Shown piece after piece: positions 16,927 through 53,714 of a stretch of 64,000 nucleotides of DNA. Under the pieces are notes generated by a model. It was not told the DNA's origin. It was given only the letters and a program-made list of their open reading frames with translations, and searched no databases. Source of the DNA: Mustelus asterias. Its lineage: Eukaryota. Location of the stretch: the NCBI RefSeq assembly GCF_964213995.1, contig NC_135808.1, positions 12,586,001 through 12,650,000 on the forward strand, read 5' to 3'. Position 1 is the stretch's first letter. Each line of letters begins with the position of its first letter. Both the position numbers and the translations under genes were made by a program.

Positions 16927-17993
16927 GTGTACAACAAGTACCACGAGGAGAGGATCTACCTCTCAAATATTAAATTTTCAAAACTTCTTTCCAAAGTAAC
17001 AGGAAGACAGTTGACAACAAGTGAAAATGGAATGTCAGTCACTTGGTTAAGCTTATATTTGCATGGACTGGGACAAATTTCTTACCCATATAGTACCTTT
17101 GATTTGAACAGAAATTCAAGTGTAGGAATCAAATCATCTGATCGGTCAGGCTATAAATATAGCGAACAGCCAGCATACCCCGGCTCAACATTTGTATAGA
17201 TTTGCAATGTCCATTGCAAAAGAAAAGCATGGCATTGCACACCACAATTCGTGAATCAAACATCTGAATAAAGTGGCATGTGTCTTTAATTTAACTGGGG
17301 TGTTTCTGTTACAAGGGGTTCCAAACTCTCATTAAACCACAGATAAAACATAAAAGAAGCTCGCTTAAGAGAGAAAGTGAAGCACATGTAAAATAAACAG
17401 GTCACTAGCTTGCTGCTACAGAATTAATGCGTTGTTCTTTCTACAGTGTTGGAATTTGGAAGATAGTCTCCTAGCTTGTCAGCACTCACTTTAAACTGGA
17501 GTGTTGAGAAAATTGAAATTAGCAGAAAACTAAAGAAAGCTGGAGAACATTAAACGTTTACAAGTAATTGTTTCAAGTGGCTGCAGATTGGAGACATTTC
17601 CAGTGAGATACCAGTTTCCAAAAAGCTAGAATATTCAAGTTGGAAATGGAGTATGGGAGATTTAGTTAGAATCTATGAATAAGCTGTATTGCTTAATTTA
17701 TTATAAGTTAAAGCATGTATAAATGTACAAAACGGCCAATAAAAATGTACAAAACGGCCAATAAAAATGTACAAAGGCACAGCCAGCATCTGTTTCAACT
17801 TTTGACTTGCAACTTAAAACGTACAAAGATGGAAAGAGGAGCATCAAAAACCATAGCCTTCCCCCAAAATCAAAAAGCAGTTCAAAAAATTTGGCCCATG
17901 TTCTGCTCACATTGAAAGCACACAAAGGGAAACTGCATTGGCTGTGCCATGCTCACAGGTAGTCAAAATCACAATCACAGTTTTTCATGTAAG

Positions 17994-18029
17994 TCATACT
18001 TCCAGGTCAGCACTCCTGGATTTTGGCTC
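17994..18029 (-). CDS. Exon 6, C-terminus EPKSRSADLEV*
   Basis: Strong polypyrimidine acceptor (ctttctctctttttttctgtAG), phase 0, TGA at 17996-17994. Confidence 0.7.
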   Translation of the reverse strand, partial: EPKSRSADLEV

Positions 18030-21000
18030 CTACAGAAAAAAAGAGAGAAAGGGGATTAAAATGTCTGCAAATGGCAGAAAAGCCTGATTTTTTTGATACA
18101 AAAATGAAGAAAAGCACAGTTCTAACAGTTGGTGACTTGCATTTGATTGTTCTTTGTACATTAGGTTTAAGGCTCCCCTCCCCCTTCAGAAAAAGCTAAT
18201 GGCCAAGATATTCTTGTAAACCATGTCATCATCACCCCATCTAACAATATGCCTTTTTTATGGACTCCACAATAATTCATGTATTTATTGCATTTTATCT
18301 CTATACATGCAGCACTTTCAGAATTGCCCCACTTGCTAAAGCTTAGGCTCATAAAAGATCATTTACTGCAATATGATAAAGACAAATTGGTTATAAGTTT
18401 ACAGCTTTCTAGTGTTGAATATTTAATCCTCTTGTCTGCCTACATGGAGGGAATTGGTTTTATTTCATTTCACTTTTAGATATTGAACGGGGCTTAACAA
18501 TAAAATATTCCCCATTTAGCTATCGGTCTCTGGTAACAAACCATGACATGGATGCATTCTGACAGTACAGTAGCTAGTGGAGCAGTTCCAGTCTTACAAT
18601 CTTGAAGAGCAATTTCAATTTGTTGCACACTTACAAGAACATTCATTTATAGGAAGGTTTGGAGCAACACATGTATATCTAACTTGTCACTTGCATTTGA
18701 TCAGAATACTTACAGAAATTTCATGTTGCCTTGACACCGGATAGGAGTATGGCTGACGTCCAGTTTTCCATTTCAAATCTGTTGATGGCAATATATAATG
18801 AATCATTTTGAATTAAGTTTATTAGTCACAACTAGGCTTACATTAACACTGCAATGAAGTTACTGTGAAAATTCCTTAGTCGCCACTCCGACGCCTGTTC
18901 GGGTACACCAAGGGAGATATAGCATGGCTCATGCATCTCACCTGCACATCTTTCAGACGGTGGAAGGAAACCAGAGCAACCCTACGCAGACACAGGGAGA
19001 ATGTGCAGACTCCACACAGACAGTGACCCAAGCCGGGATCGAATCCAGGTCCCCGGCACTGTGAGGCAGCAGTGCTAACCACTGTGCTACCCACTAGAAT
19101 ATCAGTCTGCAATTTCCTTCCCCCATTAAAACATTTTTCTTCCAAATTTTACCATACAGTGTACCAAAGTTGAACAACTTGCATGAACACCCATTTCCAT
19201 ATTACTGATCTGCTTATTTTGCTGCCCCTGCTGGAGAGAGGAATGTCCCAGGAACGTTAAGCCCCTTCAAAACGTTATGGCATGGGTCCTGCAGCCACAG
19301 GAATAAGACAGCCAAAAGGAGGAAACGCAGTAAGGAAGATGCAAGGTGAACAACTGGTCACATATTAAACAAAATGTCTTCGACCTAGCAAACAAATGGA
19401 TTCGTTTGGGCCAGGCTGGGCTACAAGAGGAACTTCCATATCGTCTTCACTGCATACGTAAAATTTTGCTTCAGAAATACTAGTTATTTGTACCTGGTTA
19501 AGTCAACCACAACTGAGGACTCCAGTGTTCAGAAATTCTGAGCTTATGAGTTTGTAATTTAAAAACTTACAACTTGGAAACCCGAAAAACTTACAACCAC
19601 CACTTAAAAAAGGTGCAAGAAAACCAAAACCCCTTTCTGTTGAAGACAGGTAGTGAGAGGATACATTAGTGTTGCTTAAATTAACCCCCACTCCTGTTTT
19701 TAACAATCAGTAAAACCTAGTGGATAGTCAAGGGCTAACTGCTAAAGGTACAAAACTCTCAATATGTGCTCATGGAGTGAGTGAAGTCAAAAGTTTCAGG
19801 CAGTCACAATTTATTTCCACTTTGTAGCCATTGCAACAGTTTTAAAATGAAACTCACTGCATCGTCAATACTTACACATGATTACAAGTGCAGCGATGAA
19901 TGCCACCACCACAGTAGAAATTACAATTATTTGTACATTGTTTGCTGGTTCTGATGGCTCACATTCTTTACCTGAAATAGATTTTACATAAACACAGTTT
20001 TAATTAGCACATTAACTGAAAGACTCACTACAACACACAACCACGTTATGGAAAGTAACTAGACATTCAGCCGTGGCATCTTGATTACATCACAACTACA
20101 AGAAATCTTTGGTTCCCAACTTGCACTGCCTGCACCATCTCCGGTACATTTGGCATCAAGACTTTGCTGTCTGAAAACAAATCTCAGCAGCAGATCGGTC
20201 TTCGTAAGACAGCAGGTTACATCAGACAATGCCATGAGAGAACTGCTTTAATCAATACACATGGACGCCTGGAGACCAGTGATCTAATTTCTGAAACTAT
20301 GGCTGCTGCTATAAACCAGAATTGGCACACCAAAGTTGCATTCGTTGGAAACATCTGTTTACACATCTGGACATATATGCACTGTAAGTACAGTAGCACA
20401 GTGATTCGCACTGCTACGTCAGCTCCAGGGACATGGAATCAATTCCAGCCTTGGGTGACTGCCTGTGTGGAGTGTGTACATTCTCCGTGTGTCTGCGTGT
20501 GTTTCCTCCAAGTGCTCTGGTTCCTCCCACAGTCCAAAAATGGGTAGGTTATGTGGATTAGCGGGGTAAGTGCATGGTGTAACTGGGATAGGATGAGGGT
20601 TGGGCTCGAGTCGGAGTCAGACTCAAAAGTCCAAATGGCCTCCTTCTGCACTGGAGGGATTCAAATGCTGTTAGCATTCTCTGTCCATTAATTTGTAAGC
20701 ATTAATGAGCAAGTCATTTGTATGTGTCACTTTGTGAACCAAGCTCTGATGATCTGATGCTGAAAGAATCGGTGTCGTAGTTTCAGGGCATTCCATTGTC
20801 TGCTCAATGGAACAAAGGACAAAGAAAATTACAGCACAGGAACAAGCCCTTCAGCCCTCCAAGCCTGTACCGACCATGCTGCCTGAATGAACTAAAACCC
20901 TATACCCTTCCGGGGACCATATCCCTCTATTCCCATCCTATTCATGTATTTGTCAAGACGCCCCTTAAAAGTCACTACCGTATCTGCTTCCACTGCCTCT

Positions 21001-24000
21001 CCCAGCAACGAGTTTCAGGCACCCAGCACCCTCTGTAAAAAATCTGCCTCGTACATCTCCTTTAAACCTTACTCCTCGCACCTTAAACCTGTGCCCCCTA
21101 ATAATTGACTCTTCCACCCTAGGAAAAAGCTTCTGACTATCGATTCTGTCCATACCTCTCAATCTTGTAGACTTCTATCAGGTCACCCCTCAACCTCCGT
21201 CGTTCCAGTGAGAACAAACCAAGTTTCTCCAACCTCTCCTCAAAGCTAATGCCGTCCATATCAGGCAACATCCTGGTAAATCTTTTCTGTACCCTCTCCA
21301 AAGCCTCCTCATCCTTCTGGTAGTGTGGCGACCAGAATTGAACACTATATTCCAAGTGCAGCCTAACTAAGGTTCTATCAAGCTGCAACATGACTTGCCT
21401 ATTTTTAAACTCAATGCCCCGGCTGATGAAGGCAAGCATGCCGTATGCCTTCTTGACTACCATTGCCACTTTCAGTGACCTGTGTACCTGTACACCCAGA
21501 TCCCTTTGCCTATCAATACTTTCAAGGGTTCTGCCATTTACTGCCTCATTGCTATCCGCAAATCCACAAACTTTTGTGTCGTCCGCAAACTTACTAACCA
21601 AACCAGTTACATTTTCCTCCAAATCATTGATACGTATTACAAGCAGCAAAGGTCCCAGCACTGATCCCTGAGGAATGCCACTTGTCACAGCCCTCCATTC
21701 AGAAACGCACCCTTCCACTGCTACCCTCTGTCTTCTTTGACCGAGCCAGTTTTGTATCCACCTTGCCAGCTCACCTCTGATCCCATGCGACTTCACCTTC
21801 TGCACCAGTCTGCCATGAGGGACCTTGTCAAAGGCCTTACTGAAGTCCATGTAGACAACATCCACTGCCCTATCCTCATCAATCATCTTTGTCACTTCCT
21901 CAAAAAACTTGATCAAGTTCATGAGACACGACCTCCCCTTCACAAAAGCATAGAATCATAGAAACCCTACAGTGCAGAAGGAGGCCATTCGGCCCATCGA
22001 GTCTGCACCGACCACAATCCCACCCAGGCCCTACCCCCACATATATATCCGCTAATCCCTCCAACCTACACATCCCAGGACTCCAAGGGGCAATCTTTAA
22101 CCTGGCCAATCAACCTAACCAGCACATCTTTGGACCGTGGGAGGAAACCGGAGCACCCGGAGGAAACCCACGCAGACACGAGGAGAATGTGCAAACTCCA
22201 CACAGACAGTGACCCGAGCCGGAAATCGAACCCAGGACCCTGGAGCTGTGAAGCAGCAGTGCTAACCACTGTGCTACCGTGCCGCCCTACTGTGCTACCG
22301 TGCCGCCCTATCATGGCGCTTCTCACTAATACGCTCATTTATTTCCAAGTGAGAATAAATCCTGTCTGTCTCGAAGAATCCTCTCCAATAATTTCCCTAC
22401 CACTGATGGAAGGGGCGGGAAAGATTGGAAAGAAGCACTGCTTTTTCACAGGAGATCGTGAAGTAAATAATGCAATAAGCACCACACAACTGATCCTGGA
22501 TCACTTACAATACAAACAGTATTGCTTTAAGTGCGCAACTTACATTATAAGTACAGATATTATCTGTACTTAATTAATTGAACTAGAATACAAAGGTTGA
22601 TAATTGTCATTCTTCAAATGAACAGAAATTATCCAAAGCTCTGAGCACCAAAATATGCACTTTAATCTGGTGCTAAAAGGTTAATACTGATGGGACTTGT
22701 GACCAAAGAGGCCACCTAAAATGGTGATTTACAGAGTATGCTGGGATAATTGGACAAGCACCGAAACAGCAGGCTGCAGCTTAACAGACAGAGATAAACA
22801 GGCTACAGCTCAGACGACTGAATACACAGGAAATAGGCCATCCCAAAGACAACGGACACTTTCTGGTCAAACATACTTGTTTACCAGACAAAGTGGAGCC
22901 TTAACCCCCTTATTTCGGATGATGTGGAGATGCCGGCATTGGAATGGGTTAGGCACAGTAAGAAGTCTCACAACACCAGGTTAAAGTCCAACAGGTTTAT
23001 TTGGTAGCACGAGCTTTCAGAGCACTGCCCCTTCATCAGTTGAATGAAGAGTTCAGTTCACAAACACAGCATATATAGACACAAACTCTATTACAAGATA
23101 ATGGTTGGAATGCGAGTCTTTACAGGTACAGACAATGTGAGTGGAGAGAGGGTTAAGCACAGGTTAAAGAGATGTGAATTGTCTCCAACCAGGACAGTTA
23201 GTGAGATTTTGCAAACCCAGGCAAGTCGTGGGGGTTACAGATAGTGTGACATGAACCCAAGATCCTGGTTGAGGCTTGCAAAATCTCACGAACTGTCCTG
23301 GTTGGAGACAACTCACATCTCTTTAACTGGTGCTTAACCCTCTCTCCACTCACATGGTCAGCATCTGTAAAGATTTGATTACCTGTAAAGACTCGCATTC
23401 CAACCATTATCTTGTAATTGAGTCTGTGTCTATATATGCCCTGTTTGTGAACTGAACTCTTCACTCACTTGGCAACGCCCTGAAAGTTTGTGCTACCAAA
23501 TAAACCTGTTGGACTTTAACCAGGTATTGAGAGACTTCTTACTGTCCTTATTTGCGAGGGAGGTGTATGACCTACGTGCCTCCGGCACCTACAGGCATGA
23601 CCGTTGGGTACACACCCAGAGATCGGTGTGGCAGCACCTAATTGGATTCTTATCGATCAGGGTGATCAAGCCCTGATCGATTGATTGACAAGAATCAGGA
23701 GACCGCCCAAAAGGACACAAAACCAAGGAGGGATTAAAGGTGCTGCACAACAGAAGAAGCTCTCTCTCTGACCCCATGAATGAGCAACAACAACGGTGAC
23801 CATCACCAGCAACGACCAGCACGAGGAGAGCCACCACACCCAAGGAGGAAGAAAGACCAGAGCCAGAGTGTCACACCAGACCAAAGGACCAGACTACGCA
23901 GAGCACGACAGAGACCAACACGTGGATGAAGGCCAATGTCTGCCTAGGTACTTGTCAGTCATACAAAAGTTAAGTCAAGGTCTAGTACTGGACTTGAACT

Positions 24001-27000
24001 TTAGTATTTCTGGGTGACTATTAATTGTGTTTAAATAAATATTGTTGTACTAACAAGAAGTCTACTAGCAATTTTGTGTCTACCGTATAAGGGTTAAAAC
24101 AGACTGTGCGGAAGGCACAACAGACTGACTGCATCCTAGCCTTTCAGAACTTGGCTGTGGTGCCCATATAAGGGGGCAGGATTCTGTACCATACAAAAGG
24201 GTGGTGAGGATTATGACCCAGTAAGACTTTTGATTTTGGCCTTCAGTTTAAGGCCGTTCTGCTTGCAAACATGACTGTGGAACCAGCCATAGGGAGAATT
24301 TTATTTCTGGATACATACACTGGTATTTTCAAGAGACACATCCCTCAAGAAGCTCACTAAGGTACGAGAATTATTGCAAAATTTTAAGACTGGTGTCATC
24401 AATGGTTATGCCTGTTGTTTTATCAAATGTGCTTGGGGCTTCCACCAAACATACACAATTTAACAGCAAAAAGTCCTTCATTATGCTGATCTCAACAGCA
24501 TGCAGACCACCCTGTCGAAAATTTAGCTGTTGGATTACTTTCAATTAGTTAGGTCGACTGTGCTTCCCCACATGGATGGCTATAGGATCCCCAAGCAATT
24601 CAAGAGCACTAGAATACTGACAGCTTTTGTGGACTTAACCTCTCACCCCTGAACCCTTTCTTTCTGTCCGTAGAAATAAACTAATCTCCATTCTCCCAAA
24701 TAATCCATCAGGATTCCCACAAGCAGAGGGTTGGATGACTCCTCATCAATATTCCATTGCCCACATTGGGAAGCTTTCCACACTCTGAAGTAAACAGACA
24801 GATTTTTATTTGGGTGCTGCAAGTGTGCATCACCAACCTGTGATTTTCCATCCTGCTCTTCTCTTGTCAGGCAAAGATATTCTTACATTAACACACTATG
24901 AGGGGCGTGCGCAGAGTGGATAACGAGCAGCTGTTCCCCTTAGTTGAAGGGTCAGTCACGGGGGGGGGGGGGGGGTGGAGAGAAAGAGATATGAGGAAAA
25001 ATTTTACTCAGAGGGTGATGACAATCTGGAATGCGCTACCTGGGAGGGTGATAAGAGACGGGTTGCCTCATATCCTTTAAAAAGTACCTGGATAAGCACT
25101 TGGCATGTCATAACATTCAAAGCGCTGGTAGATGGGAATAGGTGGGACGTCAGGTGTTTTTCGCGTGTCCGTACAGACTCAATGGACCGTATGATTCTAT
25201 GATTTTATACCTTTAGCAAGAATGATTTTAATGCACAAGAATACAATATTGAACTTAACTACGAAATGGAATGGGCTTGACTCACCGTAAACAGAAAGAG
25301 TGTTCCAATAAACAGAGGGAGAGAAAGAACAGTTCTTCCTACTAACAGGGTTCTCCATGGTGCAAGTGTAGATCACAAAGTCTAATTTGTCGGCTTTAAA
25401 AATAATCAACGTGCTGTTACTTCGCATCAAGTGATGGCGTTGACTGTTTGTTATCATTCTGCTATCCTTCCACCACAGAATGGAACTTGCTTTCCCCGCT
25501 GGCACTTGACAGGTCAGTTCAATGGTGCCATTCACACAGGTGCCATTGATTGAAGGTTCAGAAAGTGGATCTGCAAGAGAGAATAAGAAAAAGATAAAAC
25601 TGGACTGACCATGAGGACTTCACTCCTTCACCTCAAGTTTGTGTAGTCCATAGAACTCTGTCCTTCACAGGTACCTCACTACATCAGTTCTGAACTGAAC
25701 TTCTCATGCCATAATTCTCCAACATAAAGGCAGTCAGCAGATTAGTTGACCAAGGGCACTATGGTGGCATGGCAGTTAGCACTGCTGCCTCACAGTGCCA
25801 GAGACCTGGGTTCGACTCCTGGCTTGGGTCACTGGCTGTGTGGAATCTACACGTTCACCTTGTGTCTGCGTGGGTTTCCTCCCACAGTCTGAAAGATGTG
25901 CTGGTTAGATGCATTGGCCATACGAAATTAACATAAGAACTAAGAGCAGAGGTAGGCCATTTGGCCCCTCAAGCCTGCTCTGCCATTCAACAAGATCATG
26001 GCTGGTCTTTTCATTGACTCAGCTCCATTTACCCACCCGCTCACCATAATCCTTAATTCCTTCACTGTTCAAAAATCTCTCTTTGCCTTAAAAACATTCA
26101 ATGAGGTAGCCTCAACTGCTTCACTGGGCAGGGAATTCCACAGATTCACCACTCTGTGTGTGAAGAAATTCCTCCTCATCTCAGTCCTAAATCTATTCCC
26201 CCTTGTTTTGAGGCCATGCACCCCAGTTCTGGTTTCACCTGCCAGTGGAAACAAGCTCCCTGCTTCTATCTTATCTATTCTCTTCATAATTTTATATGTT
26301 TCTATCAGATTTCCCCCCCTCAGTCTTCTAAATTTCATTGAGTTTAGTCCCAGCTACTCAGTCTCTCTTCGTAAGCCAACCTCAACTCCAGGATCAACCT
26401 AGTGAATCTCCTCCGCACCCTCTCCATTGCCAGTATATCCTTTCTCAGGTAAGGAGACCAAAACTGTACACAGTACTCCAGGTGTGGCCTCACCAGCACC
26501 TTATACAGCTGCAACATAACCTCGCTGTTTTTATACTCCATCTCTCTTGCAATGAAGGACAAAATTCCATTTGTCTTCTTAATTACTTACTGCACCTGCA
26601 AACCAACTTTTTGCGATCCAGGTCCCACTGCACAGCAGCATGCTGCAATTTTTTTACCACTTAAATAATAGTCCATTTTGCTATTACTCCGACCAAAATG
26701 GATGACCTCACATTTACCAACATTGTACTCCATCTGCCAGACCCTTGCCCACTCAAACTATCTATATCCCTTTACAAACGTTCAATGTCCTCTGCACACT
26801 TTGCTCTACTACTCATCTTAGTGTTATCTGTGAACTTTGACACACTACAGTTGATCCCCAACTCCAAATCATCTATGTAAATTGTAAACAATTGCAGTCC
26901 CAACACTGATCCCTGAGGCACACCACTAGTCAGATCGCCAACCAGAAAAACACCCATTTACCCCCACTCTTTGCTTTCTGTTGGTCAACTAATTCTCTAT

Positions 27001-30000
27001 CCATGCTAATACATTACCCATAAGACCATGCACCGTTATCTTATGCAGCAGCCTTTTGTGTGGCACCATGTCAAATGCCTTCTGGAAATCCAGATACACC
27101 ACATCCACTGGTTCCTGTTGCCCACCGCGCTCATAATGTCCTCAAAGAATTCCACTAAATTAAACATGACCTGCCTTTCATGAACCCATACTGCGTCTTC
27201 CCAATGGGACAATTCATATCCACAGATATCTCATTATTTCTTCCTTGATAGATTCAAGCATTTTCCCCACCACAGAAGTTAAGCTAACCAGCCTATAGTT
27301 ACCTGTCTTTTGTCTACCTCCTTTTTTAAACAGTGGCGTCACATTTGCTGTGTTCCAATCTGCCACCCAGATTCCAGCGAAATTTGGAAAATTACCACTA
27401 GTGCACTTGCTATTTCCCCCGCCATCTCTTTTAGTACCCTGGGATGCATTCCATCAGGGCCAGGAGACTTGTCTACCTTTAGCCCCATTAGCTTGCCCAA
27501 CACTGCTTCTTTAGTGATAATGATAGTTTCTAGGTCCTCATCTGCCATCGCCTTCTTGTCACCAATTTCTGTCGTGTTATTTGTGTCTTCCACTGTGAAG
27601 ACCAACACAAAATACCTGCTCAATACCTCTGCCATTTTCTCATTTCCCATTATTAATTCCCCCTTCTCATCCTCTGAAGGACCAATGTTTCGCTTAGCCA
27701 CTCTTTTTTCTCATATATTTGTCAAAACCTTTTCTACCTGTTTTAATATTCTGACTGAGTTTACTCTCATAATCTATCTTACTTTTCTTTATAGCTTTTT
27801 TCATAGCTGTCTGTTGACCTTTAAAGATTTCCCAATCCTCTAGTTTCCCACTATTCTTTGCCACTTTCTTTCAAATTGACACCCTCCTTTATTTCCTTAG
27901 ATATCCATGGCTGATTATCTCTTTTTCTACTGTCCTTCCTTATCACTGCTGAGCACTGTGAAAAATTGCTTTGAAAGTCCTCCACTGTTCCTCAATTGTC
28001 CCACCATAAAGTTTTGCTCCCAGTCTACGTGGGCCAACATCCCCCCTCATCCAATTGTAGTCTCCTTTGTTTAAGTACAAGAGATTGGTTTTGATTTTAC
28101 CTTTTCACGCTCCGTTTGTATTTTAAATTCAACCATACTGTGATCGCTCCTTCCGAGAGGATCCCCAACTGTGAGATTGTTAATTATTCCTGTCTCATTA
28201 CACAGGATCAGATCTAGGATAGCTTGCTCCCTCATTAGGTTCTATTACAAATTGTTTGAGGAAACAATCATGGATGCATTCTATGAACTCCTCCTCAAAA
28301 CTGCCTTGGCCAATCGACTAAAGTCCCCCATGATAATTGCCGCACCATTTTTACATGCGTCAATTATTTCCTTGTTTATTGTTTGCCCCACCGTGATATT
28401 ATTTGACAGCCTATAGACTACACTGATCAGTTACTTTTTTTCCTTACTATTTCTAATTTCCACCCAAATGGACACAACGCTTTTCTCCATAGAACCTACA
28501 TCATCTCTCACTACCAGCCTGATGTCATCCTTAAACATCAGAGCTACACCACCTCCCATACCTTCTTGTGTGTCCTTCCGAATAGTCTGATACCCCTGGA
28601 TTCTCCCTCAGTGTACCTGAACAGGCGTCGGAGTGTGGCGACTAGGGATTTTCACAGTGACTTCATTGTAGTGTTAGTGTAAGCCTACTGTGATACTAAT
28701 AAATGAACTCAAAACTTGATTCCCACTGTCAATCTACTAAACGAAATCCTGTAGTTGCTGGACATCGGATACAAAATGCTCAAAACTTAGTAAATCAGGC
28801 AGTACTTACATAAACTGAAATAGTGAACATTTTACATCCAAAAGGTCACTGGCCTGAAATATATTCTCCGCTTCTTTCTACACAATTGCTCAATTTGTCC
28901 AGCATTTATGCTCAACTGACGACTGAGTGACGTTAATCTATATATAGACTGTGCAAACTACATTAGCAATAATAGTGACAAATTAATTTCCGAGTAGGAC
29001 TAGTTTTTTGTTTGGACCAGCATGTTTGGATAATTTCTCGTGAAAGTGGTGAATTCCTATAAGAGGTTATTTTGGCGTGCTGTGACTAATTAACTTTTTG
29101 GAACAATTCTGCACTTTTAACCAAGGAAAAATCTGGGTGGAAACGAGTGGCGAGAAGGAAATAAAGAGGCTGAATGGGCTGTACAGACTGGATACAGGGA
29201 TAGCGTAACCTCTGGCTTGGCTCACAATGTCAGGACACGGAGTAGGCCATTTAGCACTGAATTTTCTTCACAGAGGCTGTGGAGGCCACGACACTGAATG
29301 TAACTTAAAAATAGATCTCTAGACAGTAAAGGAATTAAGGAGTATGGGGAGAGAGTAAGAGGTAGAGGAACAACCATGATCACACAATGGTGGAGCAGGC
29401 TAAATGGCCTACTCCTGCTCCTATGAGAGGAGGTCACCAGCACAGGCTGGATGATGCCACATTGGAATCATCTTCCTTTTCCATATTAAAGTTTATTTAT
29501 TGATGAGTCAAGTAGGTTTACATTAACACTGCAATGGAGTTACTGTGAAAATCCCCTAGACGCCACACTCCGGCACCTGTTCGGGTACACGGAGGGAGAA
29601 TTTAGCAGGGCCAATTCACCTAACCTGCACATCTTTGGACTGTGGGAGGAAACCAGAGCACCCGGAGGAAACCCACGCTGACACGGGGAGAACATGCAAA
29701 CTCCACACAGACAGTGGCACAAGCCGGGAATACTGTGAGGCAGCAGTGCGAACCACTGTGCCGCCCCTCATCACTACACTGATGTAGTTTGGCTTAGGGA
29801 GCGACAAGCTTCAAGTGGGTCTTTTGCACCTCCTCTGGGATATTTGCAGTGTCTGGTATACGCAGCTTGCATTTCAATTCTTTTGCCTTAGGGATAAGGG
29901 GTTTATAGTTTTGTCTTCAGCAAAAACAACAACCACAAATTCTGTGTCACCTTTCTTAAGTTTGGTACTGAATAATTCATGAGCGGCAACACTTCCAAGT

Positions 30001-33000
30001 GACAAAGCAATTAAACTACTTACCAATGAGTTTCAAAATTCTCCTTCCTCTCAGTTCTCCTCCTGTTGTGATTTTATAAATTCCTTCGTCTCTAGATGTT
30101 ACATTCATTACCGTCAGAGCGCCAGTGGAAACATTATAATATAAACGAGACTTGAACTGTTCATTTGGCTCCTGTTTGGGCAAATTTGGTGCGTAATCGA
30201 AAATAGTAAAAAGGCTTCCACCACTGTCTGTGAACTCCCATATTACATCAATGCTCCTCAGATCTTCATCAATTTTAAGGTCCAGTGAAGGTGATGAACC
30301 AACAGCAGCAAGTACTTCTTCCTGCCCAACTGATTGACAAAACAAAGTAAGTTAAATACTGGCAGTGAAACGTCAAGAAAAACAACAATAAATAACTGAC
30401 TTATTGGGAGCTCAGAACCTGGATTTCTGAGGGTAGAGATTTCACACAGGTTCAGCAATCTGCAACTCTGAAAATAAAGCCTAGTGCTTGGTTTGCTCTG
30501 TTTCAAGCTTCACTAATGCGTGGCAGAAATCTTAATGAATGCTATATTTGTACTGCAAGATGTCAGTGTTCCTCTACTCTCCCTAAATTGACACCTTCCA
30601 GGTAATAAGTGACTTTTCCCCCCAACCTGAACGACTTCACATTTATCCACATTGAACTTTAGTAATTTACCATTCTGTAAGTTTATTGATTTAGAAACAT
30701 AGAAAAACTACAGCACAAAACAGGCCCTTCGGCCCCACAAGTTGTGCCGAACATACCCCTACCTTTTAGGCCTACCTATAACCCTCCATCCTATTAAGTC
30801 CCATGTATTCATCCAGGAGTCTCTTAAAAGACCCTATTGAGTTTGCCTCCACCACCACTGACGGCAGCCGATTCCACTTGCCCACCACCGTGTGTGTGAA
30901 AAACCTCCCCCTAACATTTCCCTGTACCTACCCCCCCAGCACCTTAATCCTGTGTCCTCTCGTAGCAGCCATTTCCACCCTGGGAAAAAGCCTCAGAGTC
31001 CACCCGATCTATGCCTCTCAACATCTTATATACCTCTATTAGGTCTCCTCTCATCCTACGTCGCCTCAAGGAGAAAAGACCGAGCTCCCTAAGCCTATCC
31101 TCATAAGGCATGCCACTCAATCCAGGCAACATCCTTGTAAATCTCCTCTGCACCCTTTCAATCTTTTCCACATCCTTCCTGTAATGAGGCGACCAGAACT
31201 GAGCACAGTACTCCAAGTGGGGTCTGACGAGGGTCTTGCATAGCTGCATCATTATCCCCGGACTCCTAAACTCAAATCCCTCGATTGATAAAGGCCAGCA
31301 CACCATACGCCTTCTTAACCACCTCCTCCACCTGCGGGGCCGATTTAAGAGTCCTATGCACCCGGACCCCAAGGTCCTTCTGCTCCTCGACAGTACCAAG
31401 AGTCTTTCCCTTTATATTGTACTCCTTCATCCCATTTGACCTGCCAAAATGGAACACTACGCATTTATCTGGGTTGACGTCCATCTGCCACTTCTCCGCC
31501 CAGTCTTGCATCCTATCTATGTCCCTCTGTAACTTCTGACATCCCTCCAGACTATCCACAACCCCACCAACCTTTGTGTCGTCAGCAAACTTACCAACCC
31601 ATCCCTCCACTTCCTCATCCAGGTCATTTATGAAAATGACAAACAGCAAGGGTCCCAGAACAGATCCCTGGGGACCGACCTCCATTTAGAAAAAGATCCA
31701 TCTATACCCACTCTCTGCCTCCTTTGGGCAAGCCAGTTCTGGATCCACAGGGCAACAGCCCCTTGGATCCCATGCCCTCTCACTTTTTCAAGAAGCCTTG
31801 CATGGGGGACCTTATCGAACGCCTTGCTAAAATCCATATAAACCACACCCACCGCTTTCCCTTTGTCAATGTGTTTAGTCACATTTTCGAAGAACTCCAC
31901 CAGGCTCGTAAGGCACGATCTGCCTTTGACAAAGTCATGCCGAGTATTCTTGAGCATACTAAACCTCTCTAAATGCTCATAAATCTTGTCCCTCAGGATC
32001 TTCTCCATCAGCTGACCAACCACTGAGGTTAGACTGACCGGTCAGTAATTTCCTGAGCTATCCCTATTCCCCTTCTTGAAAATAGGAACCACATCCGTAA
32101 TCCTTCGGCAACCTCTCCCGTCTCCATCGACGACACAAAGATCATCACCAGAGGCTCTGCAATCTCTTCCCTCGTCTCCCACAGTAACCTGGGGTACATC
32201 CCATCCGGACCCGGCGACTTATCTATCTTGATGCCATTCAAAGATTCCAGCACAACCTCTTTGTTAAAGTCCACATACTCAATCTTTTCAGTCCACCGCA
32301 TGCCCGCAGTACATCCACCCAGGTCCTTCTCCTCTGAAAACCGAGACAAAATACTCATTAAGCACCTCTGCCATTTCTACTGGTTCCGTACAGATTTTTC
32401 CGCCTTCACCTTTTATTGGCCCTATTCCTTCACGTCTCATCCTTTTACTCTTCACGTATTTATAGAACGCCTTAGGGTTTTCCTTAATCCCACCTGCCAA
32501 GGCCTTCTCGTGACCCCTTCTGGCTCTCCTAATTTCCTTCTTTAGTCCCTTCCTACAAGCCGTATACTCATCTAGATCCCTATCTTCGCCAAGCTCTCTG
32601 AACCTTTTGTACGCTTTCCTTTTCTTCTCGACTAGGTCCCGCACAGCTTTCGTGCACCACGGTTCCTTTAACCTACCAACTCCTCCCTGTCTGCTCGGAA
32701 CGTTGTCCTGCAGAACTCTCGACAGACATTCCTTGAAAAACTGCCACGTCTCTTCAGTACATTTCCCCGAGAATACCTCCTTCCAATTTACTCCTCTAAT
32801 TTGCTGCCTTATGCCTTCATATTTCCCCTTACTCCATATAAACGCTTTCCTAGCTTGCCTGATCCTCTCTTTTTCCAATGCAAGCATAAAGGAATAGAGT
32901 TATGACCGCTATCCCCAAGATGCTCTCCCACTGAGAGATCTGACACCTGTCCAGGTTCATTGGTCAGTATCAGATCAAGTACAGCCTCTCCTCTTGTAGG

Positions 33001-36000
33001 CTTGTCCACATGCTGTGTCAGGAAACCCTCCTGAGCACACCTAACCAACTCCTCCCATCCAATCCCCTTACCCGAGGGAAAAATCCAATCTATGTTTGGG
33101 AAATTAAAGTCTCCCATCACAACAACTCTGCTATTATTGCAACTCTCCAGGATCGGTTTCCCTATCTACTCCTCCACCTCCCTGTTACTATTGGGCGGCC
33201 TATGCAATTATTTAACTTCAGTACATCCGCAGCATAATTTTTAAACTTCAGTACAACATCGTCAGCATAATTAAACTTCACGTTTTATAAATATGAAAAT
33301 CTGTGTTCTGAAGTAATTAAGGAAAAACAGTTACACAGTTTACAGCTAAATCCTCCACATCAGACGAAGACACAAATCTCAGTGAAATCCCCTCTCTGCA
33401 GCCCATGACATTTTACATTTCTCTGTAGAAAGGTGGCTGCTGCGCCGGCCCTGACAAAGATGGCGATGTTAGAATCATAGAATCCTACAGTGCAGGAAGA
33501 GGCCATTTGGCCCATCGAGTCTGCACCGACCACAATCCCACCCAGGTCCTATCCACATATCCTCACATATTTACCCACTAACCACTCTAACCTATGCATC
33601 CCGAGACACTAAGGGGCAATTTTATCATGGCCAATAAACCGTTGCAAAACGACAGATCCAAAAGTTACAAAGTGCAAAAAATGAATCATTTTTACAGTAC
33701 AATACAGTGCTTATTTACAAAACATTACACTCATTACTTAAAACTATGTACATACATCAGAGTTTACTGTGTGCTGTTATTTTTCAGATTAGCACACAGT
33801 TACGCAGGCCGAGGGTATTCTGCAGTTACCGGGCCCTCGGTGGAGACGCTTTACACGGTGGCCTTTCCCCATTGTGCCTTTGCGGCGGCTGCCCAAAGCT
33901 TGAACGCGTCCCTGAGCACGTAGTCCTGGACCTTGGAATGTGCCAGTCTGCAACACTCGGTCGAGGACAATTCTTTCAGCTGGAAGATCAGCAAGTTTCG
34001 GGCGGACCAAAGCGCGTCCTTCACCGAGTTGATGACCCTCCAGCAGCAGTTGATATTTGTCTCCGTGTGCGTCCCCGGAAACAGCCCGTAGAGCACAGAG
34101 CCCTGCATCACCGAGCTGCTCGGGACGAACCGCGACAAATACCACTGCATCTCACTCCAGACCTTCTTTGCAAAGGCACATTCCACAAGGAGGTGTGCGA
34201 CCGTCTCATCAGCCCCGCAGCTGCTTCGAGGGCAGCGTGCGGTGAGGTTGAGCCCTCGGGCGTGCATAAAGGATCTGACGGGGAGTGCCCTTCTCACCAC
34301 CAGCCAAGCCAGGTCTTGGTGCTTGTTTGTGAGTTCTGGTGATGAGGCATTCTGCCAAATGACATTGACAGTCCGCTCAGGGAACCATCCGACAGGATCC
34401 GCCATCTCCTTTTCTCTCAGGGCCTCAAGGACATTACGTGTTGACCACTGCTTGATAGCCATGTGGTCAAAGGTGCGTTTCCGGAAGAATTTCTCCACGA
34501 AGGACAGGTGCTGCGGTACGGTCCAACTACTTGGAGCTTTCATAGAATCATAGAAACCCTACAGGACAGAAAGAGGCCATTCAGCCCATCAAGTCTGCAC
34601 CGACCACAATCCCACCCAGGCCCTACCCCCATATCCCTACATATTTTACCCGCTAATCCCTGTAATCTATGCATCCCAGGACACTAAGGGGCAATTTTAG
34701 CATAGCCAATCAACCTAACCCGCACATCTTTGGACTGTGGGAGGAAACCGGAGCACCCGGAGGAAACCCACACAGACATGAGGAGAATGTGCAAACTCCA
34801 CACAGACAGTGACCCAAGCCAGGAATCACGCTGTTTTGTTTCTTAAAGACTTGATTAGTTGTAAGTATTCGCATTCCAACCATTATTCATGAAAAAATGG
34901 AGTCTGTGCCTTTATATGCCCTGTTTGAGAACAGAATTCCCACTCACCTGAAGAAGGGGCTTGGAGGTCCGAAAGCTTGTGTGGCTTTTGTCAACAAATA
35001 AACCTGTTGGACTTTAACCTGGTGTTGTTAAACTTCTTGCTGTGAAGCAGCAGTGCTAACCACTGTGCTACCGTTCCGCGGCAATGTGGCCAGACCCATC
35101 CTCCGCAACACTTGGGACAGGTAGAACCTCAAAAAATAGTGGCACTTGTTGTTAGCGTACTGAGGATCTACACACAGCTTGATGCAACCGCACACAAAGT
35201 GGCCATCAGGATGAGGACGGCGTTGGGAACGGTTTTCCCTCCGTTCTCTGGAGATTTGTGCATCGCCTCCCTCCGGACACGATCCATCTTTGATCTCCAG
35301 ATAAATTTGAAGAAGGCCTGCGTCACTGCTGCTGCGCAGGATTTGGGGATGGGCCAGACCTGCGCCACGTACAACACGGACAGTGCCTCTCACCAGATGA
35401 CCAGGTTTTTCCCAGTGATAGAGAGGGAGCGTTGCTCCCACAATCCCAATTCTTGTCTGGCTTTGGCGATGTGCTCCTCCCATTTTTTGGCGCATGCCCC
35501 TGCCGCTCCAAACCATATCCCCAGCACCTTGAGGTAGTCTACCCTGACGGTGAAGAGGACAAAGGATGTGTCAGGCCAGTTCCCAAAGAACATGACCTCG
35601 CTCTTACCCTGGGTGACTTTGGCCCGAGGCCAGCTCGAACTGCTCACAGACTTGAAGGAGCCTGCGAACAGACGAGGGGTCCGAGCAGAAAACAGCCACG
35701 TCATCCATGTACAGGGAGGCTTTGACTTGCGTCCCTCCGCTGCCTGGGATTGTAACCCCTTTGATGCCTGGGTCGCTTCTGAGGGCCTCGGCAAAGGGTT
35801 CAATGCAACACACAAAAATGACGGAGGAGAGGGCAGCCCTCTCTGACTCCAGACCTGATCTGAAACATATCTGATTCCCACCCGTTGATTGAAACTGCGC
35901 TACTGATGTCTGTGTAGAGCAGTTGGATCCAATTGCGGATTCCCTTCCTTAAGCCCATTTTGGAGAGCACATCCATCATGTAGCTGTGCGATATTCTGTC

Positions 36001-38144
36001 AAACGCCTTCTCCTGGTCTAGACTGATGAGGCAGGTGTCCACCTGCCTGTCCTGCACATAGGCGATCGTATCCCTGAGTAGCACGAGGCTATCAGATATC
36101 TTCCTGCCGGGTACAGCACAGATCACTGACCCCAGAGCAGACTTGACCCAGTTGCGATGACTTTGGCCAGAATTTTATAGTCCACGTTCAACAGTGAAAT
36201 GGGTCTCCAATTTCTAATTTCTTCCCTTTCCCCCTTCTGCTTGTAGATGAGGGTAATGATGCCTTTCCTCATGGATTCTGACATGCTGCCTTCCAGAAGC
36301 ATACTCTCGTATACTTCCAGGAGGTCCGGGCCCGTCAAGTCCCACAACGCCAAGTAAAACTCAGCCGGTAAGCCATTGCTTCCGGGAGTTTTATCCTTTT
36401 GAAGGGACTCGACGGCCTTTGTCAGCTCATCCAGAGCTACCGGTCTGTCCAGGCTCTCCCGCTCGCCGTCGTCCAAGACCTCCGTGATAGACAACAGGAA
36501 AGACTGGGAGGCCGTGCTGTCTGTTGGCTTCAGGTCATACAGTCCGGCATAGAAGGATTTGCATATTCTCAGAATGTCAGACTGCGATGTCAGACTCCGC
36601 AATTAAGTTACTGTAAAAATCCCCTCGTCGCCACACTCCGGCGCCTGTTCGGCTACACTGAGGGAGAATTTAGGATGGCCAATGCACCTTGATGTGGAGA
36701 TGCCGGCGTTGGACTGGGGTAAACACAGTAAGAAGTCTCACAACACCAGGTTAAAGTCCAACAGGCTTATTTGGTAGCACAAGCCACCAGCTTTCGGAGC
36801 GCTGCTCCTTCATCAGGTGAGTGGGAGTTCTGTTCACAAACAGGGCATATATAGACACAAATTCCATTTACAAAATAATGGTTGGAATGCGTGTCTTCAC
36901 AGGTAATCAAGTCTTAAAAGGTACAGACAATGTGAGTGGAGAGAGGGTTAAGATGTGGAGGAATTAAGGGCTATGGGGAGAGAGCGGGTAAATGGAGTTG
37001 AAATCAACCATGATTGAATGGTGGAGTGGACTCGATGGGCCGAATGGCCTTACTTCCGCTCCTATGTCTTATGGTCTTATGGAGATGCCGGCGTTAGACT
37101 GGGGTAAACACAGTAAGGAATCTAACAACACCAGGTTAAAGTCCAACAGGTTTATTTGGTAGCAAACACCACTAGCTTTCGGAGCGCTGCTCCTTCATCA
37201 GGTGAGTGGGAGATCTGCTCATAAGCAGCAAACAAGGCATATATAGACACAAACTCAATTTACAGAATAATGAATAATGATTGGAATGCGAGTCTTTACA
37301 GCTAATCAAGTCTTAAAGGTACAGACTATGCGGGTGGAGAGAGGGTTAAGCACAGGTTAAAGGATGTGTATTGTCTCCAGCCTGCTCAGTTCAGACTAAA
37401 CTTGCGTCAAGATGGCTGCTGCGCCTGCGCAGTTTGTAACTCGCCCGTACAAACTCGACGTAGTGAGCGACACTCGACCGCAGCCCCGAGACCAGCACAA
37501 CACAACACAGCAAAACCATACTTATCTTACCCAAAAGACCAAGAAATAATGAGGGAATTAAACAGCCACTGCACAGAAAAGTAGAGCCGCAAAGCCGGCG
37601 GAATGAGCCTTGGCCAGTTCGGTACAAACGCGGGACTTCACACACGATGTTTACAAAACCTCCTGATCCAGATCCGGCCCCGGTTTGTGTCTGAGGAAGG
37701 GGCCCAGCTGAGCTGAGCTGAGCTGAGCTGCTCACAAGCCCATCCCCTGTTTGTTTGAGCGTCCTGTCTGCTCCGGCAGGGAAAGGGCTGGGCCCCGGCC
37801 CCGGTCTGTCTCTGAAGAGGCGGCGGCGGAGGGCGGGGAGAGGGGCTCACAACCCCATCCCCTGTTTGTGTGACCCACAGTTTGGGAAAACACTGGAATG
37901 TGATTTACTGTGAAAGGAAACCCGGGAGCGGGGCCAACTCCGCTGCGACAACACACTCACTCACTCAAAACAAACTCAATGAGTTGCAGCCACATTTAAA
38001 CATTTCCTACGACGGTTTCCCAGGAATTAAAAAATAATAATTTCTCCAATTGACATCCTTACCTCCCACAGCGATCAGTTCAAAGGTGAGACTGAAGGAA
38101 AAGCAGCTGAGGAACAACATGACGGTGAATAGCGGTGTATCCAT
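17994..38144 (-). CDS. Spliced gene (6 coding exons, 870 nt, 289 aa): CD2/SLAM-family-like Ig superfamily type-I membrane protein (leader-IgV-IgC2-TM-short tail)
   Basis: Exons 38063-38144, 30024-30329, 25286-25570, 19876-19971, 18714-18778 and 17994-18029 all have GT-AG boundaries, and intron phases 1,1,1,1,0 join into one open frame. IgV lacks the B/F cysteines (SLDLKI..VIWEF..DEGIYKIT); C2 has LTC..W..YTCTMENPVS. Confidence 0.85.
18714..18778 (-). CDS. Exon 5, juxtamembrane cytoplasmic segment
   Basis: Acceptor ccatcaacAG, donor |GTAAGT; YLKWKTGRQPYSYPVSRQHEIS places basic stop-transfer residues right after the TM. Confidence 0.75.
18812..19095 (-). mobile_element. V-SINE with alternative tail (representative; similar at 180-462, 13760-13992, 29487-29765, 47715-47970, 52520-52797)
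   Basis: Same head/V-domain but tail gtgtacccgaacaggcgtcggagtggcgact..ttttcacagtaacttcattgcagtgttaatgtaagcctaNttgtgaC(a)ctaataaa. Confidence 0.85.
19876..19971 (-). CDS. Exon 4, stalk plus transmembrane helix
   Basis: Acceptor ctatttcAG, donor T|GTAAGT, 96 nt; GKECEPSEPANNVQIIVISTVVVAFIAALVIM. Confidence 0.85.
20810..21947 (-). mobile_element. CR1 LINE 3' fragment
   Basis: ORF 21137-21943 has RT motifs. Confidence 0.9.
21950..22290 (-). mobile_element. HE1-type V-SINE with CR1-derived tail (representative; similar at 3455-3752, 6365-6690, 10575-10870, 34540-34830, 50291-50700)
   Basis: tRNA-like head (GGTAGCACAGTGG A-box, GGTTCGATTT B-box), V-domain tgcgtgggtttcctccgggtgctccggtttcctcccac, tail gggccgaatggcctcc..(ttctatga)n. 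Confidence 0.9.
22698..24122 (+). mobile_element. Solo LTR (TG...CA, 4-bp TSD GACT)
   Basis: gact|TGTGACC...GCACAACA|gact; internal AATAAA at ~24035. Confidence 0.7.
22916..23545. mobile_element. Penelope pLTR inverted pair (non-autonomous) inside a solo LTR
   Basis: Same pLTR sequence as 7675-8180 in tail-to-tail arrangement, flanked by ccttattt. Confidence 0.8.
25286..25570 (-). CDS. Exon 3, IgC2 domain
   Basis: Acceptor tctctcttgcAG, donor G|GTGAGT, 285 nt; DPLSEPSINGTCVNGTIELTCQV..ILWWKD..STLII..DFVIYTCTMENPVS. Confidence 0.9.
25930..28600 (-). mobile_element. CR1 LINE, older subfamily, degenerate
   Basis: KSPGPDGMHPRVLKE, GVPQGSVLG, VRPHLEYCVQFWSP. Confidence 0.85.
30024..30329 (-). 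CDS. Exon 2, IgV domain without the canonical disulfide (CD2/SLAM/CEACAM type)
   Basis: Acceptor tttgttttgtcaatcAG, donor G|GTAAGT, 306 nt; VGQEEVLAAVGSSPSLDL..DVIWEF..QFKSRLYYNVSTGALTVMNVTSRDEGIYKIT. Confidence 0.9.
30695..33200 (-). mobile_element. CR1 LINE (endonuclease C-terminus to 3' end), degenerate
   Basis: MGDFNFPNIDW, LDLILTNEP, DFSKAFDKVPH, KFADDTK. Confidence 0.9.
33640..36590 (-). mobile_element. Tx1-clade LINE, 5'-truncated ORF2 (RT + C-terminal zinc knuckle), interrupted at ~34530-35070
   Basis: NWRPISLLNVDYKIL, SLDQEKAFDRISH, ASLYMDDV, CPRSSCGADETVAHLLVECAFAKKVW. Confidence 0.9.
34835..35040 (+). mobile_element. Penelope pLTR fragment
   Basis: Reverse complement of the 8185-8380 pLTR sequence. 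Confidence 0.75.
36691..37382 (-). mobile_element. Two Penelope pLTR fragments separated by a CR1 tail
   Basis: gatgtggagatgccggcgttggactgggg..caccaggttaaagtccaacagg motif at 36691 and 37081. Confidence 0.8.
37168..37210 (-). ncRNA. Minimal type-I hammerhead ribozyme motif in a Penelope pLTR (best-conserved copy)
   Basis: CAC-CUGAUGA-A-GGAGC(AGC)GCUCC-GAA-AGCU-A^GUG: intact core, 5-bp stem II, palindromic stem III, NUH = CUA. Confidence 0.7.
37390..37960. promoter_or_regulatory. Intronic CpG-rich island with YY1-like and NRF1-like motifs
   Basis: CAAGATGGC 37408-37416, TGCGCCTGCGCA 37420-37431, high CpG density, internal ~120-bp duplication. Confidence 0.45.
37515..37545 (-). pseudogene. 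Degenerate U2 snRNA 5' fragment (duplicate of the 38512 module)
   Basis: TTCTTGGTCTTTTGGGTAAGATAAGTATGGT inside a ~105-bp module shared with 38503-38608. Confidence 0.6.
38063..38144 (-). CDS. Exon 1, signal peptide MDTPLFTVMLFLSCFSFSLTFELIAVG
   Basis: ATG at 38144, hydrophobic leader, phase-1 donor G|GTAAGG compatible with the IgV exon. Confidence 0.75.
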
Positions 38145-40172: not shown

Positions 40173-42176
40173 ATAGAACATAGAACAGTACAGCACAGAA
40201 CAGGCCCTTCGGCCCACGATGTTGTGCCGAGCTTTATCTGAAACCAAGATCAAGCTATCCCACTCACTATCATCCTGGTGTGCTCCATGTGCCTATCCAA
40301 TAACCGCTTAAATGTTCCTAAAGTGTCTGACTCCACTATCACTGCAGGCAGTCCATTCCACACCCCAACCACTCTCTGCGTAAAGAACCTATCTCTGATA
40401 TCCTTCCTATATCTCCCACCATGAACCCGATAGTTATGCCCCCTTGTAATAGCTCCATCCACCCGAGGAAATAGTCTTTGAACGTTCACTCTATCTATCC
40501 CCTTCATCATTTTATAAACCTCTATGAAGTCTCCCCTCAGCCTCCTCCGCTCCAGAGAGAACAGCCCGAGCTCCCACAACCTTTCCTCATAAGACCTACC
40601 CTCCAAACCAGGCAACATCCTGGTAAATCTGCTCTGCACTCTTTCCAGCGCTTCCACATCCTTCTTATAGTGAGGTGACCAGAACTGCACACAATATTCC
40701 AAATGTGGTCTCACCAAGGTCCTGTACAGTTGCAGCATAACCCCACGGCTCTTAAACTCCAACCCCCTGTTAATAAAAGCTAACACACTATAGGCCTTCT
40801 TCACAGCTCTATCCACTTGAGTAGCAACCTTCAGAGATCTGTGGATATGGACCCCAAGATCTCTCTGTTCCTCCACAGTCTTCAAAACCCTACCTTTGAC
40901 CCTGTAATCCACATTTAAATTAGTCCCACCAAAATGAATCACCTCGCATTTATCAGGGTTAAACTCCATTTGCCATTTTTCAGCCCAGCTCTGCATCCTA
41001 TCTATATCTCTTTGCAGCCTACAACAGCCCTCCACCTCATCCACTACTCCACCAATCTTGGTGTCATCAGCAAATTTACTGAGCCACCCTTCAGCCCCCT
41101 CCTCCAAGTCATTTATAAAAATTACAAAGAGCAGAGGACCAAGCACTGATCCCTGTGGCACTCCGCTGGTAACCGGTTTCCAGTCTGAAAATTTTCCATC
41201 CACCACCACCCTCTGTCTTCTGTTAGATAGCCAGTTACCTATCCAATCGGCCAAACTTCCCTCTATCCCACACATCCTTACTTTCATCATAAGCCGACCA
41301 TGGGGGACCTTATCAAACGCCTTACTAAAATCCATGTATATGACATCAACTGCACTACCTTCATCTACACACTTAGTTACCTCCTCAAAAAATTCTATCA
41401 AATTTGTGAGGCAAGACTTGCCCTTCACAAATCCGTGCTGACTATCCCAGATTAAGCTGCATCTTTCTAAATGGGCGTAAATCCTATCCCCAAGGACCTT
41501 TTCCATCAACTTACCGACCACCGAAGTAAGACTAACCGGCCTATAATTACCAGGGTCATTTCTATTCCCTTTCTTAAACAGAGAAACCACATTCGCCACT
41601 CTCCAGTCCTCGGGCACCATCCCCGTGGACAGTGAGGACGCAAAGATCAAAGCCAAAGGCTCTGCTATCTCATCCCTTGCCTCCCAAAGAATCCTAGAAT
41701 ATATTTCATCAGGCCCAGGGGACTTATCAACTTTCAGTTTATTCAAAATTGCTAGTACATCTTCCCTCCGAACATCTACTTCCTCCAGCCTATCAGCCTG
41801 TGACACCATCTCTTCCTCAAAAACATGGCCCCTCTCCTTGGTGAACACCGAAGAAAAGTATTCATTCATCACCTCTCCTATCTCTTCTGACTCCATGCAC
41901 AAATTCCCACTGCCGTCCTTGACCGGCCCCAGCCTCACCCTGGTCATTCTTTTATTCCTCACAGAAGAGTAAAAAGCCTTGGGGTTTTCCTTGATCCAAC
42001 CCGCCAAGTATTTCTCATACCCCCTCCTAGCTCTCCTAAGCCCCTTTTTCAGCTCATTTCTTGCTAACTTGTAACCCTCCATCGGGCCAACTGAACCTTG
42101 TTTTCTCAACCTAACATATGCTTCCTTCTTCCTCTTGACAAGACATTCCACCTCTTTTGTGAACCATGGTTCCCTC
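40173..42176 (-). mobile_element. Young CR1 (HER1-like) LINE, 5'-truncated, with an uninterrupted 633-aa RT ORF
   Basis: ORF 40250-42151: NYRPVSLTS, YMDFSKAFDKVPH, GVPQGSVLGP, KFADDTK; (ttctatg)n tail. Confidence 0.95.
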
Positions 42177-42179
42177 TTT

Positions 42180-53268: not shown

Positions 53269-53317
53269 CTTCAGTGCAGGTTAAACCGATTCCCAGGAGG
53301 AGGCTGAGGTAAGACAT
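53269..53317 (-). CDS. Candidate leader exon MSYLSLLLGIGLTCTE-G (copy 1)
   Basis: Kozak-like gccgagATG, 16 codons + 1 nt, strong donor AAG|GTAAGG, located in a CpG-rich island. Confidence 0.5.
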
Positions 53318-53714
53318 CTCGGCAGGATCGCCCTTCCCGGCGGTTGCTCGGCCGCGGAGGTGAAAGCGGAGAGAGGGTTTGAACTTGTTCCAATATGACG
53401 GTTGCTGCCGTCTCCGAGTCTCCCCCTCTCCTCTCCCGGTTCATTCAGGGATGTGGAGCAGTGACCGAGAGCTCTCCTCCAACTCCCCCTACCCTCTCCC
53501 ACCCTGAGTTTGATTGCGACAGACATTGCCATACAGAGCTCGGCGGCTACAATACAGCAAAGGCAAGAGGCGGGACTCTGCTCGGCACGAACTTGTCCTC
53601 CTTCCTTAAAAGGTACAAACAATGTGCTGAGCAGACAGGGGGCACTCAAATCCACCCTCTTGCTTGCTCGCTTCAAAAATCAAATTGAATCCAATTGACA
53701 GTCCCTCCACAAAA

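Follow-up and report, generated by a model that had tools for sequence, protein, structure and literature searches.

Our analysis of a 64,000-nt stretch of the genome of the shark Mustelus asterias (NCBI RefSeq assembly GCF_964213995.1, contig NC_135808.1, positions 12,586,001 to 12,650,000; hereafter the window) showed that a minus-strand gene for a small immunoglobulin (Ig) receptor has as its membrane exon the fifth helix exon of a family of five-pass proteins, with membrane exons 1–4 missing, and that eight such single-pass proteins of five sharks are nested among five-pass genes. The window gene is real and looks ordinary enough, its origin being the unusual part: it is very probably a shortened offshoot of a five-pass V-C2 receptor, produced through exon loss. 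Taken together, the data are best explained by a single-pass offshoot of this kind that likely acts as a non-signalling binding partner, an overall account that we regard as probable.

The membrane exon carries much of this argument. In blastn comparisons, exon 4 of the window gene matched the fifth-helix exons of paralogues in 3/3 cases (E 1.6e-8 to 7e-4), and in alignments it pairs with the final helix of the five-pass proteins, the C-E-P motif being part of the match. The nearest relatives of the window protein (40–48% overall identity in the alignment) are multi-pass, and three paralogues mapped to the genome have one helix per exon, with five helix exons in P0021 and P0025 and five plus a loop exon in P0033, all flanked by phase-1 introns. 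Of the five phase 1-1 helix exons the window gene holds only the fifth. At the same time, none of 12 helix 1–4 exons matched intron 3 below E 0.05 (blastn, best E 0.05), and tblastn and per-helix hidden Markov models (HMMs) also found nothing there. The gene would thus have arisen when a five-pass V-C2 ancestor lost, in frame, the four exons that encode helices 1–4 and kept the fifth-helix exon; both the reading frame and the topology (N-terminus out, C-terminus in) would survive such a loss, because the helix exons are all phase 1-1 and four helices are removed.

Family-type V and C2 domains, as well as a tree position inside the V-C2-five-helix family, were found for the window protein. In an Ig-domain tree of 49 rows (isoforms removed and, where possible, a single row for each gene), the eight single-pass proteins, which are three copies from this genome, three from catshark and one each from basking shark and white shark, formed one clade (100/100) that falls inside the shark multi-pass rows through two starred nodes. 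The nesting was the same in an outgroup tree of 33 rows, in which the five CEACAM-like outgroup rows made a separate branch (100/99) and monophyly of the 22 five-pass rows was rejected (p-AU 0.0115). Since the single-pass form is present in both ground sharks and mackerel sharks, the exon loss would predate the split between them.

The gene model itself was re-derived from the letters of the window as a minus-strand, six-exon model with an 870-nt frame (289 aa), all introns being GT-AG with phases 1,1,1,1,0. The encoded protein has, in order, a leader, a V domain, a C2 domain, a stalk with one membrane helix and a 33-residue tail on two exons that ends L-E-V. Exon 2 (Pfam V-set, E 1.5e-6) is without any Cys, which means that the N-terminal V domain lacks the B-F disulfide, while exon 3 (Pfam Ig_3/I-set, E ~1e-10; PF08204 weak, E 0.019) encodes a C2 domain with conserved cysteines and the A' Cys141, their pairing being predicted. 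The order of domains given by the initial annotation, which had been made from the letters and their open reading frames, is borne out by the exon frame, by Pfam and, after the leader, by the NCBI model; six N-X-S/T sequons were counted, as it had said, and the tail has neither the TxYxxV/I motif nor the CD2 proline-rich region whose absence it had noted. That NCBI model, XP_078073555.1 (label P0028, 'lymphocyte function-associated antigen 3-like'), is identical to the window protein in all 262 aa that follow the leader, the tail among them, and starts from a different leader exon 15–18 kb upstream. The leader proposed in the initial annotation outscores the NCBI leader against 4/5 leaders of single-pass relatives from other sharks. 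A 3.3-kb tandem duplication (window 52676-58224) holds a leader-type exon in two identical copies, which start at 53317 and 56648, derive from the leader of the neighbouring gene at C8:12.816 Mb and supply the first exon of the NCBI model. A short internal duplication was also seen at the end of exon 3 (window 25300-25330, minus strand), where the stalk is about seven residues longer than in the basking and white shark orthologues.

The window gene sits in a 1.3-Mb tandem cluster on contig C8, other members of which mostly have the same CD2-type V domain and C2 domain followed by five membrane helices. Exon 2 matches 13 V exons, all within C8 12.16-13.48 Mb, and exon 3 matches 15 related C2 exons in the same interval (106 matches genome-wide). 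Among 27 longer relatives found with exon 3, 20 have three to six hydrophobic segments after C2 and seven have one, by a crude hydropathy count that includes isoforms. Per-helix profiles recovered the complete set of five helix exons at four cluster genes and three or four of them at another two, three further cluster sites being left out of this count, and the AlphaFold2 model of P0021 has five long membrane-region helices after C2 (mean predicted local distance difference test score, pLDDT, 62). Three other family members (P0060, P0073 and P0093) have 6–12 predicted membrane segments, which suggests that helix modules have been duplicated as well as lost.

The five-pass design is not confined to sharks. 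A profile search over 1.84 billion representatives, of whose matches 20 were named, places it in chimaera, rays, caecilian, newt, turtles, birds, echidna and platypus, and a second search returned many bird and turtle members (best 120 of 150 matches); teleosts and therian mammals were not among the named rows (best 120 of 150 matches, and the 20 representatives that were named), from which we claim no absence. Helix by helix, the shark five-pass proteins align with those of chimaera, amphibians, turtles, birds and monotremes. The names given to family members automatically follow no pattern ('uncharacterized', 'HEPACAM-like', '2B4-like', 'CD48-like'), and an immunoreceptor tyrosine-based switch motif (ITSM) occurs in the last 90 aa of 2/223 family proteins. 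We found no description of the family or of the window gene in the full-text literature (subscription papers and supplements lay outside its scope), and excerpts of PMC11372145 and PMC13262535 hold nothing on the family; from the ESM Atlas came a single unnamed chordate Ig cluster and no named match.

The relatives share with CD47 the combination of Ig and five helices, the number of membrane exons (five) and a conserved Cys in the loop that precedes helix 5. CD47 itself has been called the sole five-helix receptor known in the immune system, and its fold unique (PMC8410850); in it, Cys15-Cys245 ties the Ig domain to the membrane bundle (PMC8410850, PMC10902115) and constant exons precede tail exons 8–13 (PMC10902115). 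Many shark members have C-x-P before helix 5, comparable to C245-I246-P247 of CD47 (PMC8410850), and Cys141 of the window protein lies nine residues before the B-strand Cys, close to the eight between Cys33 and Cys41 of CD47 (PMC10902115). In contrast to CD47, with its one Ig domain, the relatives and the window protein have two (V and C2), and the window protein has one helix. PF04549 had no match in 15 + 15 family proteins, and a membrane-region profile run against the PDB did not find CD47 at E 10, returning only diacylglycerol kinase (E 0.3–0.8); the Foldseek and VIA match lists were filled by Ig domains, with no comparison of the bundle only. CD47 of the shark itself was not found by PF04549/PF08204 searches, nor in the 200 kb beside IFT57. 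An Ig-like exon lies 24 kb past IFT57 (L056, near C2:56,813,047, plus strand).

A distinctive pattern of cysteines accompanies the two architectures. In a tally of 223 proteins with the family membrane region (33 not scored), 106 distinct sequences have a Cys both in the E-F loop of C2 and ahead of helix 5, four have neither, none has the E-F Cys only and three have the pre-helix Cys only, these three being a parsing slip (P0117), a single-pass protein and a real exception (P0039). The four double losses fall in three separate lineages. Such covariation points to a CD47-like disulfide in the five-pass members, in which the E-F loop Cys of C2 would pair with the Cys before helix 5. In the single-pass clade the stalk Cys (Cys228 in the window protein, before its only helix) is kept in 8/8 and the A' Cys is present in 8/8, with the E-F Cys in 1/8; in the multi-pass family the A' Cys was seen in eight of 108 distinct C2 starts. 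Judging by these residue patterns, we lean towards a switch of disulfide partner in the single-pass clade, whereby Cys228 would bond the A' Cys141 instead, holding C2 near the membrane. A subfamily of the relatives (P0017, P0018, P0026 and P0033), weakly sister to the single-pass clade in the outgroup tree, carries an additional exon for the first outer loop that contributes a Cys (C8:12,978,180-12,978,266) together with the A' Cys, which makes a second long-range disulfide possible there.

Turning to the cytoplasmic side, no ITSM (TxYxxV/I), immunoreceptor tyrosine-based inhibitory motif (ITIM) or YxxPhi motif was found in the 33-residue tail, and the tail is not proline-rich. As an alternative ITSM tail exon, seven hexamers in the three minus frames downstream of exon 4 were considered and rejected, six being without an acceptor and one lying at 934, 17 kb past the stop; the absence of ITSM/ITIM asserted by the initial annotation is upheld at sequence level, with no credible ITSM exon downstream. 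The same annotation had read L-E-V as a class II PDZ-binding motif, the pattern for which is a terminal hydrophobic-X-hydrophobic, and here we come to a different view. The ending is present in 3/3 copies of this species and in 0/5 single-pass models from other sharks (one ends W-S-I, unrelated), which are automatic predictions and may be misannotated in the tail, and across the family 8/149 distinct C-termini fit the pattern, about what chance would give.

As a type I glycoprotein with a V-C2 ectodomain of CD2/CD58 size, the window protein would, from what is known of such families, bind an Ig partner on another cell via the front sheet of its V domain, the surface through which CD2/SLAM proteins bind homophilically or within their family. 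Binding would not be relayed by the window chain itself, because the five-helix bundle is gone and there is no ITSM/ITIM, and the protein would hold or sequester its partner, as a ligand, an adhesion partner or a decoy for the pathway of the neighbouring five-pass receptors. We consider the chances of such a non-signalling ligand or decoy role to be evenly balanced. Prediction of a V-domain homodimer gave no support for a homodimer.

A broader and more tentative proposal is that the relatives form a second vertebrate family of Ig plus five-helix receptors, joining a CD2/SLAM ectodomain to a CD47-like bundle, and that from it, by four-exon loss and disulfide switch, came the window gene, which would serve as a paired decoy or trans-ligand; we see this as possible, if somewhat short of probable. 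If true, it would offer a living model for the interconversion of single-pass and five-pass immune receptors, with CD2/SLAM on the one hand and CD47 on the other. A five-pass Ig family reaching from chimaera to platypus, hidden by random automatic names, challenges the position of CD47 as the sole five-helix immune receptor. The window gene offers a natural deletion experiment (ectodomain the same, bundle removed, long-range Cys kept), and comparison with its five-pass neighbours is a direct test of what the bundle contributes. Another lesson is that 'CD48-like' or 'LFA-3-like' labels in shark genomes do not amount to orthology.

A number of points weigh against the account given here. In the trees, 'CEACAM-like' is our own label for unnamed outgroup proteins, no true CD2/SLAM rows are included, one outgroup branch is long, and a p-AU of 0.012 is moderate. 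The splicing of the window gene is supported by splice signals, by the NCBI model and by orthologues, the exon 3–exon 4 junction and expression being predictions. For the cysteines, P0039 is a true exception and P0074 (unscored) another, though with the A' Cys; the covariation (Fisher p 5e-6) is overstated, the bird and turtle orthologues being kin; Cys210 stands outside the pairs proposed here; and AlphaFold2 modelled the C2 domain and stalk of the window protein poorly (mean pLDDT 57), with no disulfide visible. The tail, moreover, has Tyr267 and Tyr269 and may bind adaptors of some kind.

These reservations have to be set against the other ways in which the gene could be explained. Taken at face value, it could be a CD2/SLAM-family member of CD58/CD48 type, comparable to atypical receptors of that family that have no ITSM (PMC10657885): it has a Cys-less V domain followed by C2, a single pass and no ITSM, as in SLAMF2, 8 and 9, it lies in a tandem cluster, and the missing ITSM does not rule out membership. 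In a structure comparison, the V domain of a cluster paralogue aligned best to CD58, CD48, 2B4 and NTB-A (Z 13–14), in keeping with the CD2/SLAM-type ectodomain initially proposed, yet the gap to JAML, CD166 and nectin is below one Z unit, so that these are tied. The A' Cys is reminiscent of the second disulfide in the C2 domain of CD2/SLAM proteins, and NCBI names the three copies in this genome LFA-3-like, CD48-like and CEACAM5-like, names that are, however, random across the family. What makes this reading unlikely is that the helix exon and the nearest relatives come from a five-pass family, among whose members the single-pass clade is nested. CD2 and SLAM loci are flanked by VANGL, whereas the one VANGL gene found here, in a search with a stricter first pass, lies on C17, a different contig from the cluster, and no SLAM/CD2 synteny was seen. 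Nor is the window protein of the glycosylphosphatidylinositol-anchored type, and its tail differs from the proline-rich tail of CD2 (PMC11882424). Of the two options that the initial annotation had left, a ligand- or adhesion-type CD58/CD48/SLAMF9-like member or a chondrichthyan-specific lineage, the former sits badly with a grouping inside a five-helix family that reaches tetrapods, while the latter gains from the fact that the gene is not a 1:1 orthologue of a named gene and has three near-identical copies. CEACAM and HEPACAM share the Cys-less V and C2, and CEACAMs rank among the best sequence matches for both the C2 exon and the family profile, but the CEACAM-like proteins stand on their separate branch of the outgroup tree, a comparison that holds no HEPACAM sequence.

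A junction adhesion molecule of CAR/JAM/HEPACAM type, tied to a scaffold through its terminal L-E-V, would account for the fit of that ending to the class II pattern and for CAR and JAML among the top Foldseek rows (obtained with a low-confidence model), but the distribution of the ending in other sharks and in the family renders it improbable. The direction of change could also be the reverse, with the single-pass form ancestral and four helix exons gained by the five-pass forms, given that CD2/SLAM, CEACAM and HEPACAM proteins are usually built as V-C2-single helix and that a second single-pass gene, P0180, lies outside the clade; the helix-for-helix alignment of five-pass members from chimaera to monotremes, the position of the window clade deep among shark five-pass genes and the rejected monophyly leave very little room for this. 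Equally hard to sustain is the idea of a decaying or assembly duplicate without function. The high similarity of the three copies and their repeat units, the 15-nt deletion in exon 5, the excess of non-synonymous changes described below and a broken-looking neighbour at C8:12.81 Mb would agree with it, but the frame is open, the splice sites and poly(A) signal are intact, the indels are in frame, orthologue models exist in four other sharks, and three copies are more than two haplotypes can provide. Exon loss from a five-pass ancestor remains the reading that we prefer.

Table 1. Parts of the single-pass receptor gene and associated signals, numbered from the first letter of the window
Feature	Position	Strand	Evidence
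Exon 1, leader, 27 codons + 1 nt, orthologous leader	38063..38144	-	ATG, GT donor; same in two sister copies
Exon 2, Cys-less IgV, CD2/CD58/CD48 type	30024..30329	-	Pfam V-set; weak PDB sequence matches including CD58 and CD48; paralogue V structure match
Exon 3, IgC2/I, canonical pair Cys150-Cys199 (predicted), Cys141 (A') and Cys210 in addition, E-F loop without Cys	25286..25570	-	
Intron 3, 5.3 kb, about half repeat; site of helix 1–4 exons in five-pass paralogues, no remnant found	19972..25285	-	tblastn, per-helix HMMs, blastn
Exon 4, stalk Cys228 (C-E-P) and single membrane helix	19876..19971	-	blastn and alignments to paralogue fifth-helix exons
Exon 5, tail, start 15 nt shorter than in two sister copies	18714..18778	-	
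Exon 6, final 11 codons ending L-E-V, and stop	17994..18029	-	
AATAAA, candidate poly(A) signal, about 290 nt after stop	17697..17702	-	
Alternative leader exon of NCBI model (identical second copy starts 56648)	53269..53317	-	

The two sister copies of the window gene lie at 12.68 and 12.76 Mb and are 96–99% identical, in repeat units of 72–75 kb. Relative to both, 15 nt are deleted in frame where exon 5 of the window copy starts, and its exon 4 has three additional nucleotides, the frame being kept by both indels. The 15 nt absent from the window copy (at 18778-18764, minus strand, compared with L013 and L017) encode a juxtamembrane Cys pair, which we infer to be a possible palmitoylation site in the sister copies, as well as lysines. 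In the V and C2 domains, the window copy differs from its sisters by 4–5 non-synonymous changes and one synonymous change; a recent triplication with this ratio would fit a fast-changing recognition molecule, the counts being too small for a test.

Other single-pass genes are present in the cluster. A fourth, at C8:12,799,550-12,816,200 (L021, L023), consists of a V domain, a C2 domain whose acceptor looks broken and a fifth-helix-type exon only; it is a weak sister (80/83) of the single-pass clade, with the E-F Cys kept and the A' Cys absent, and its helix exon also occurs as orphan copies, at 12.659 and 12.734 Mb. At the end of the cluster, P0180 (C8:13,469,000-13,490,000; L094-L096) is a second, independent single-pass form with almost no tail, the single helix of which aligns with helix 1, not helix 5. 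Inside this last cluster gene is a fragment of the inositol polyphosphate kinase family (L095:6539-6772, minus strand), perhaps a processed remnant, with an altered DFG-type motif.

Beyond the cluster, a HEPACAM-like V exon lies about 100 kb away (L104:8569-9012, minus strand), and a divergent Notch gene at C8:11.90-12.00 Mb (L092, L093), some 160 kb off the cluster edge, is accompanied on the same contig by a second, conventional Notch at 54.88 Mb. The idea of an X-chromosome paralogon was dropped for this genome, ATRX and BTK-motif genes not being on C8. The window itself is rich in reverse transcriptase frames of long interspersed nuclear elements (CR1/L2-type), for example at 40250-42187, one of them 645 aa long, and fragments of long terminal repeat elements and env-like sequences were seen in the flanks (L113, L083).

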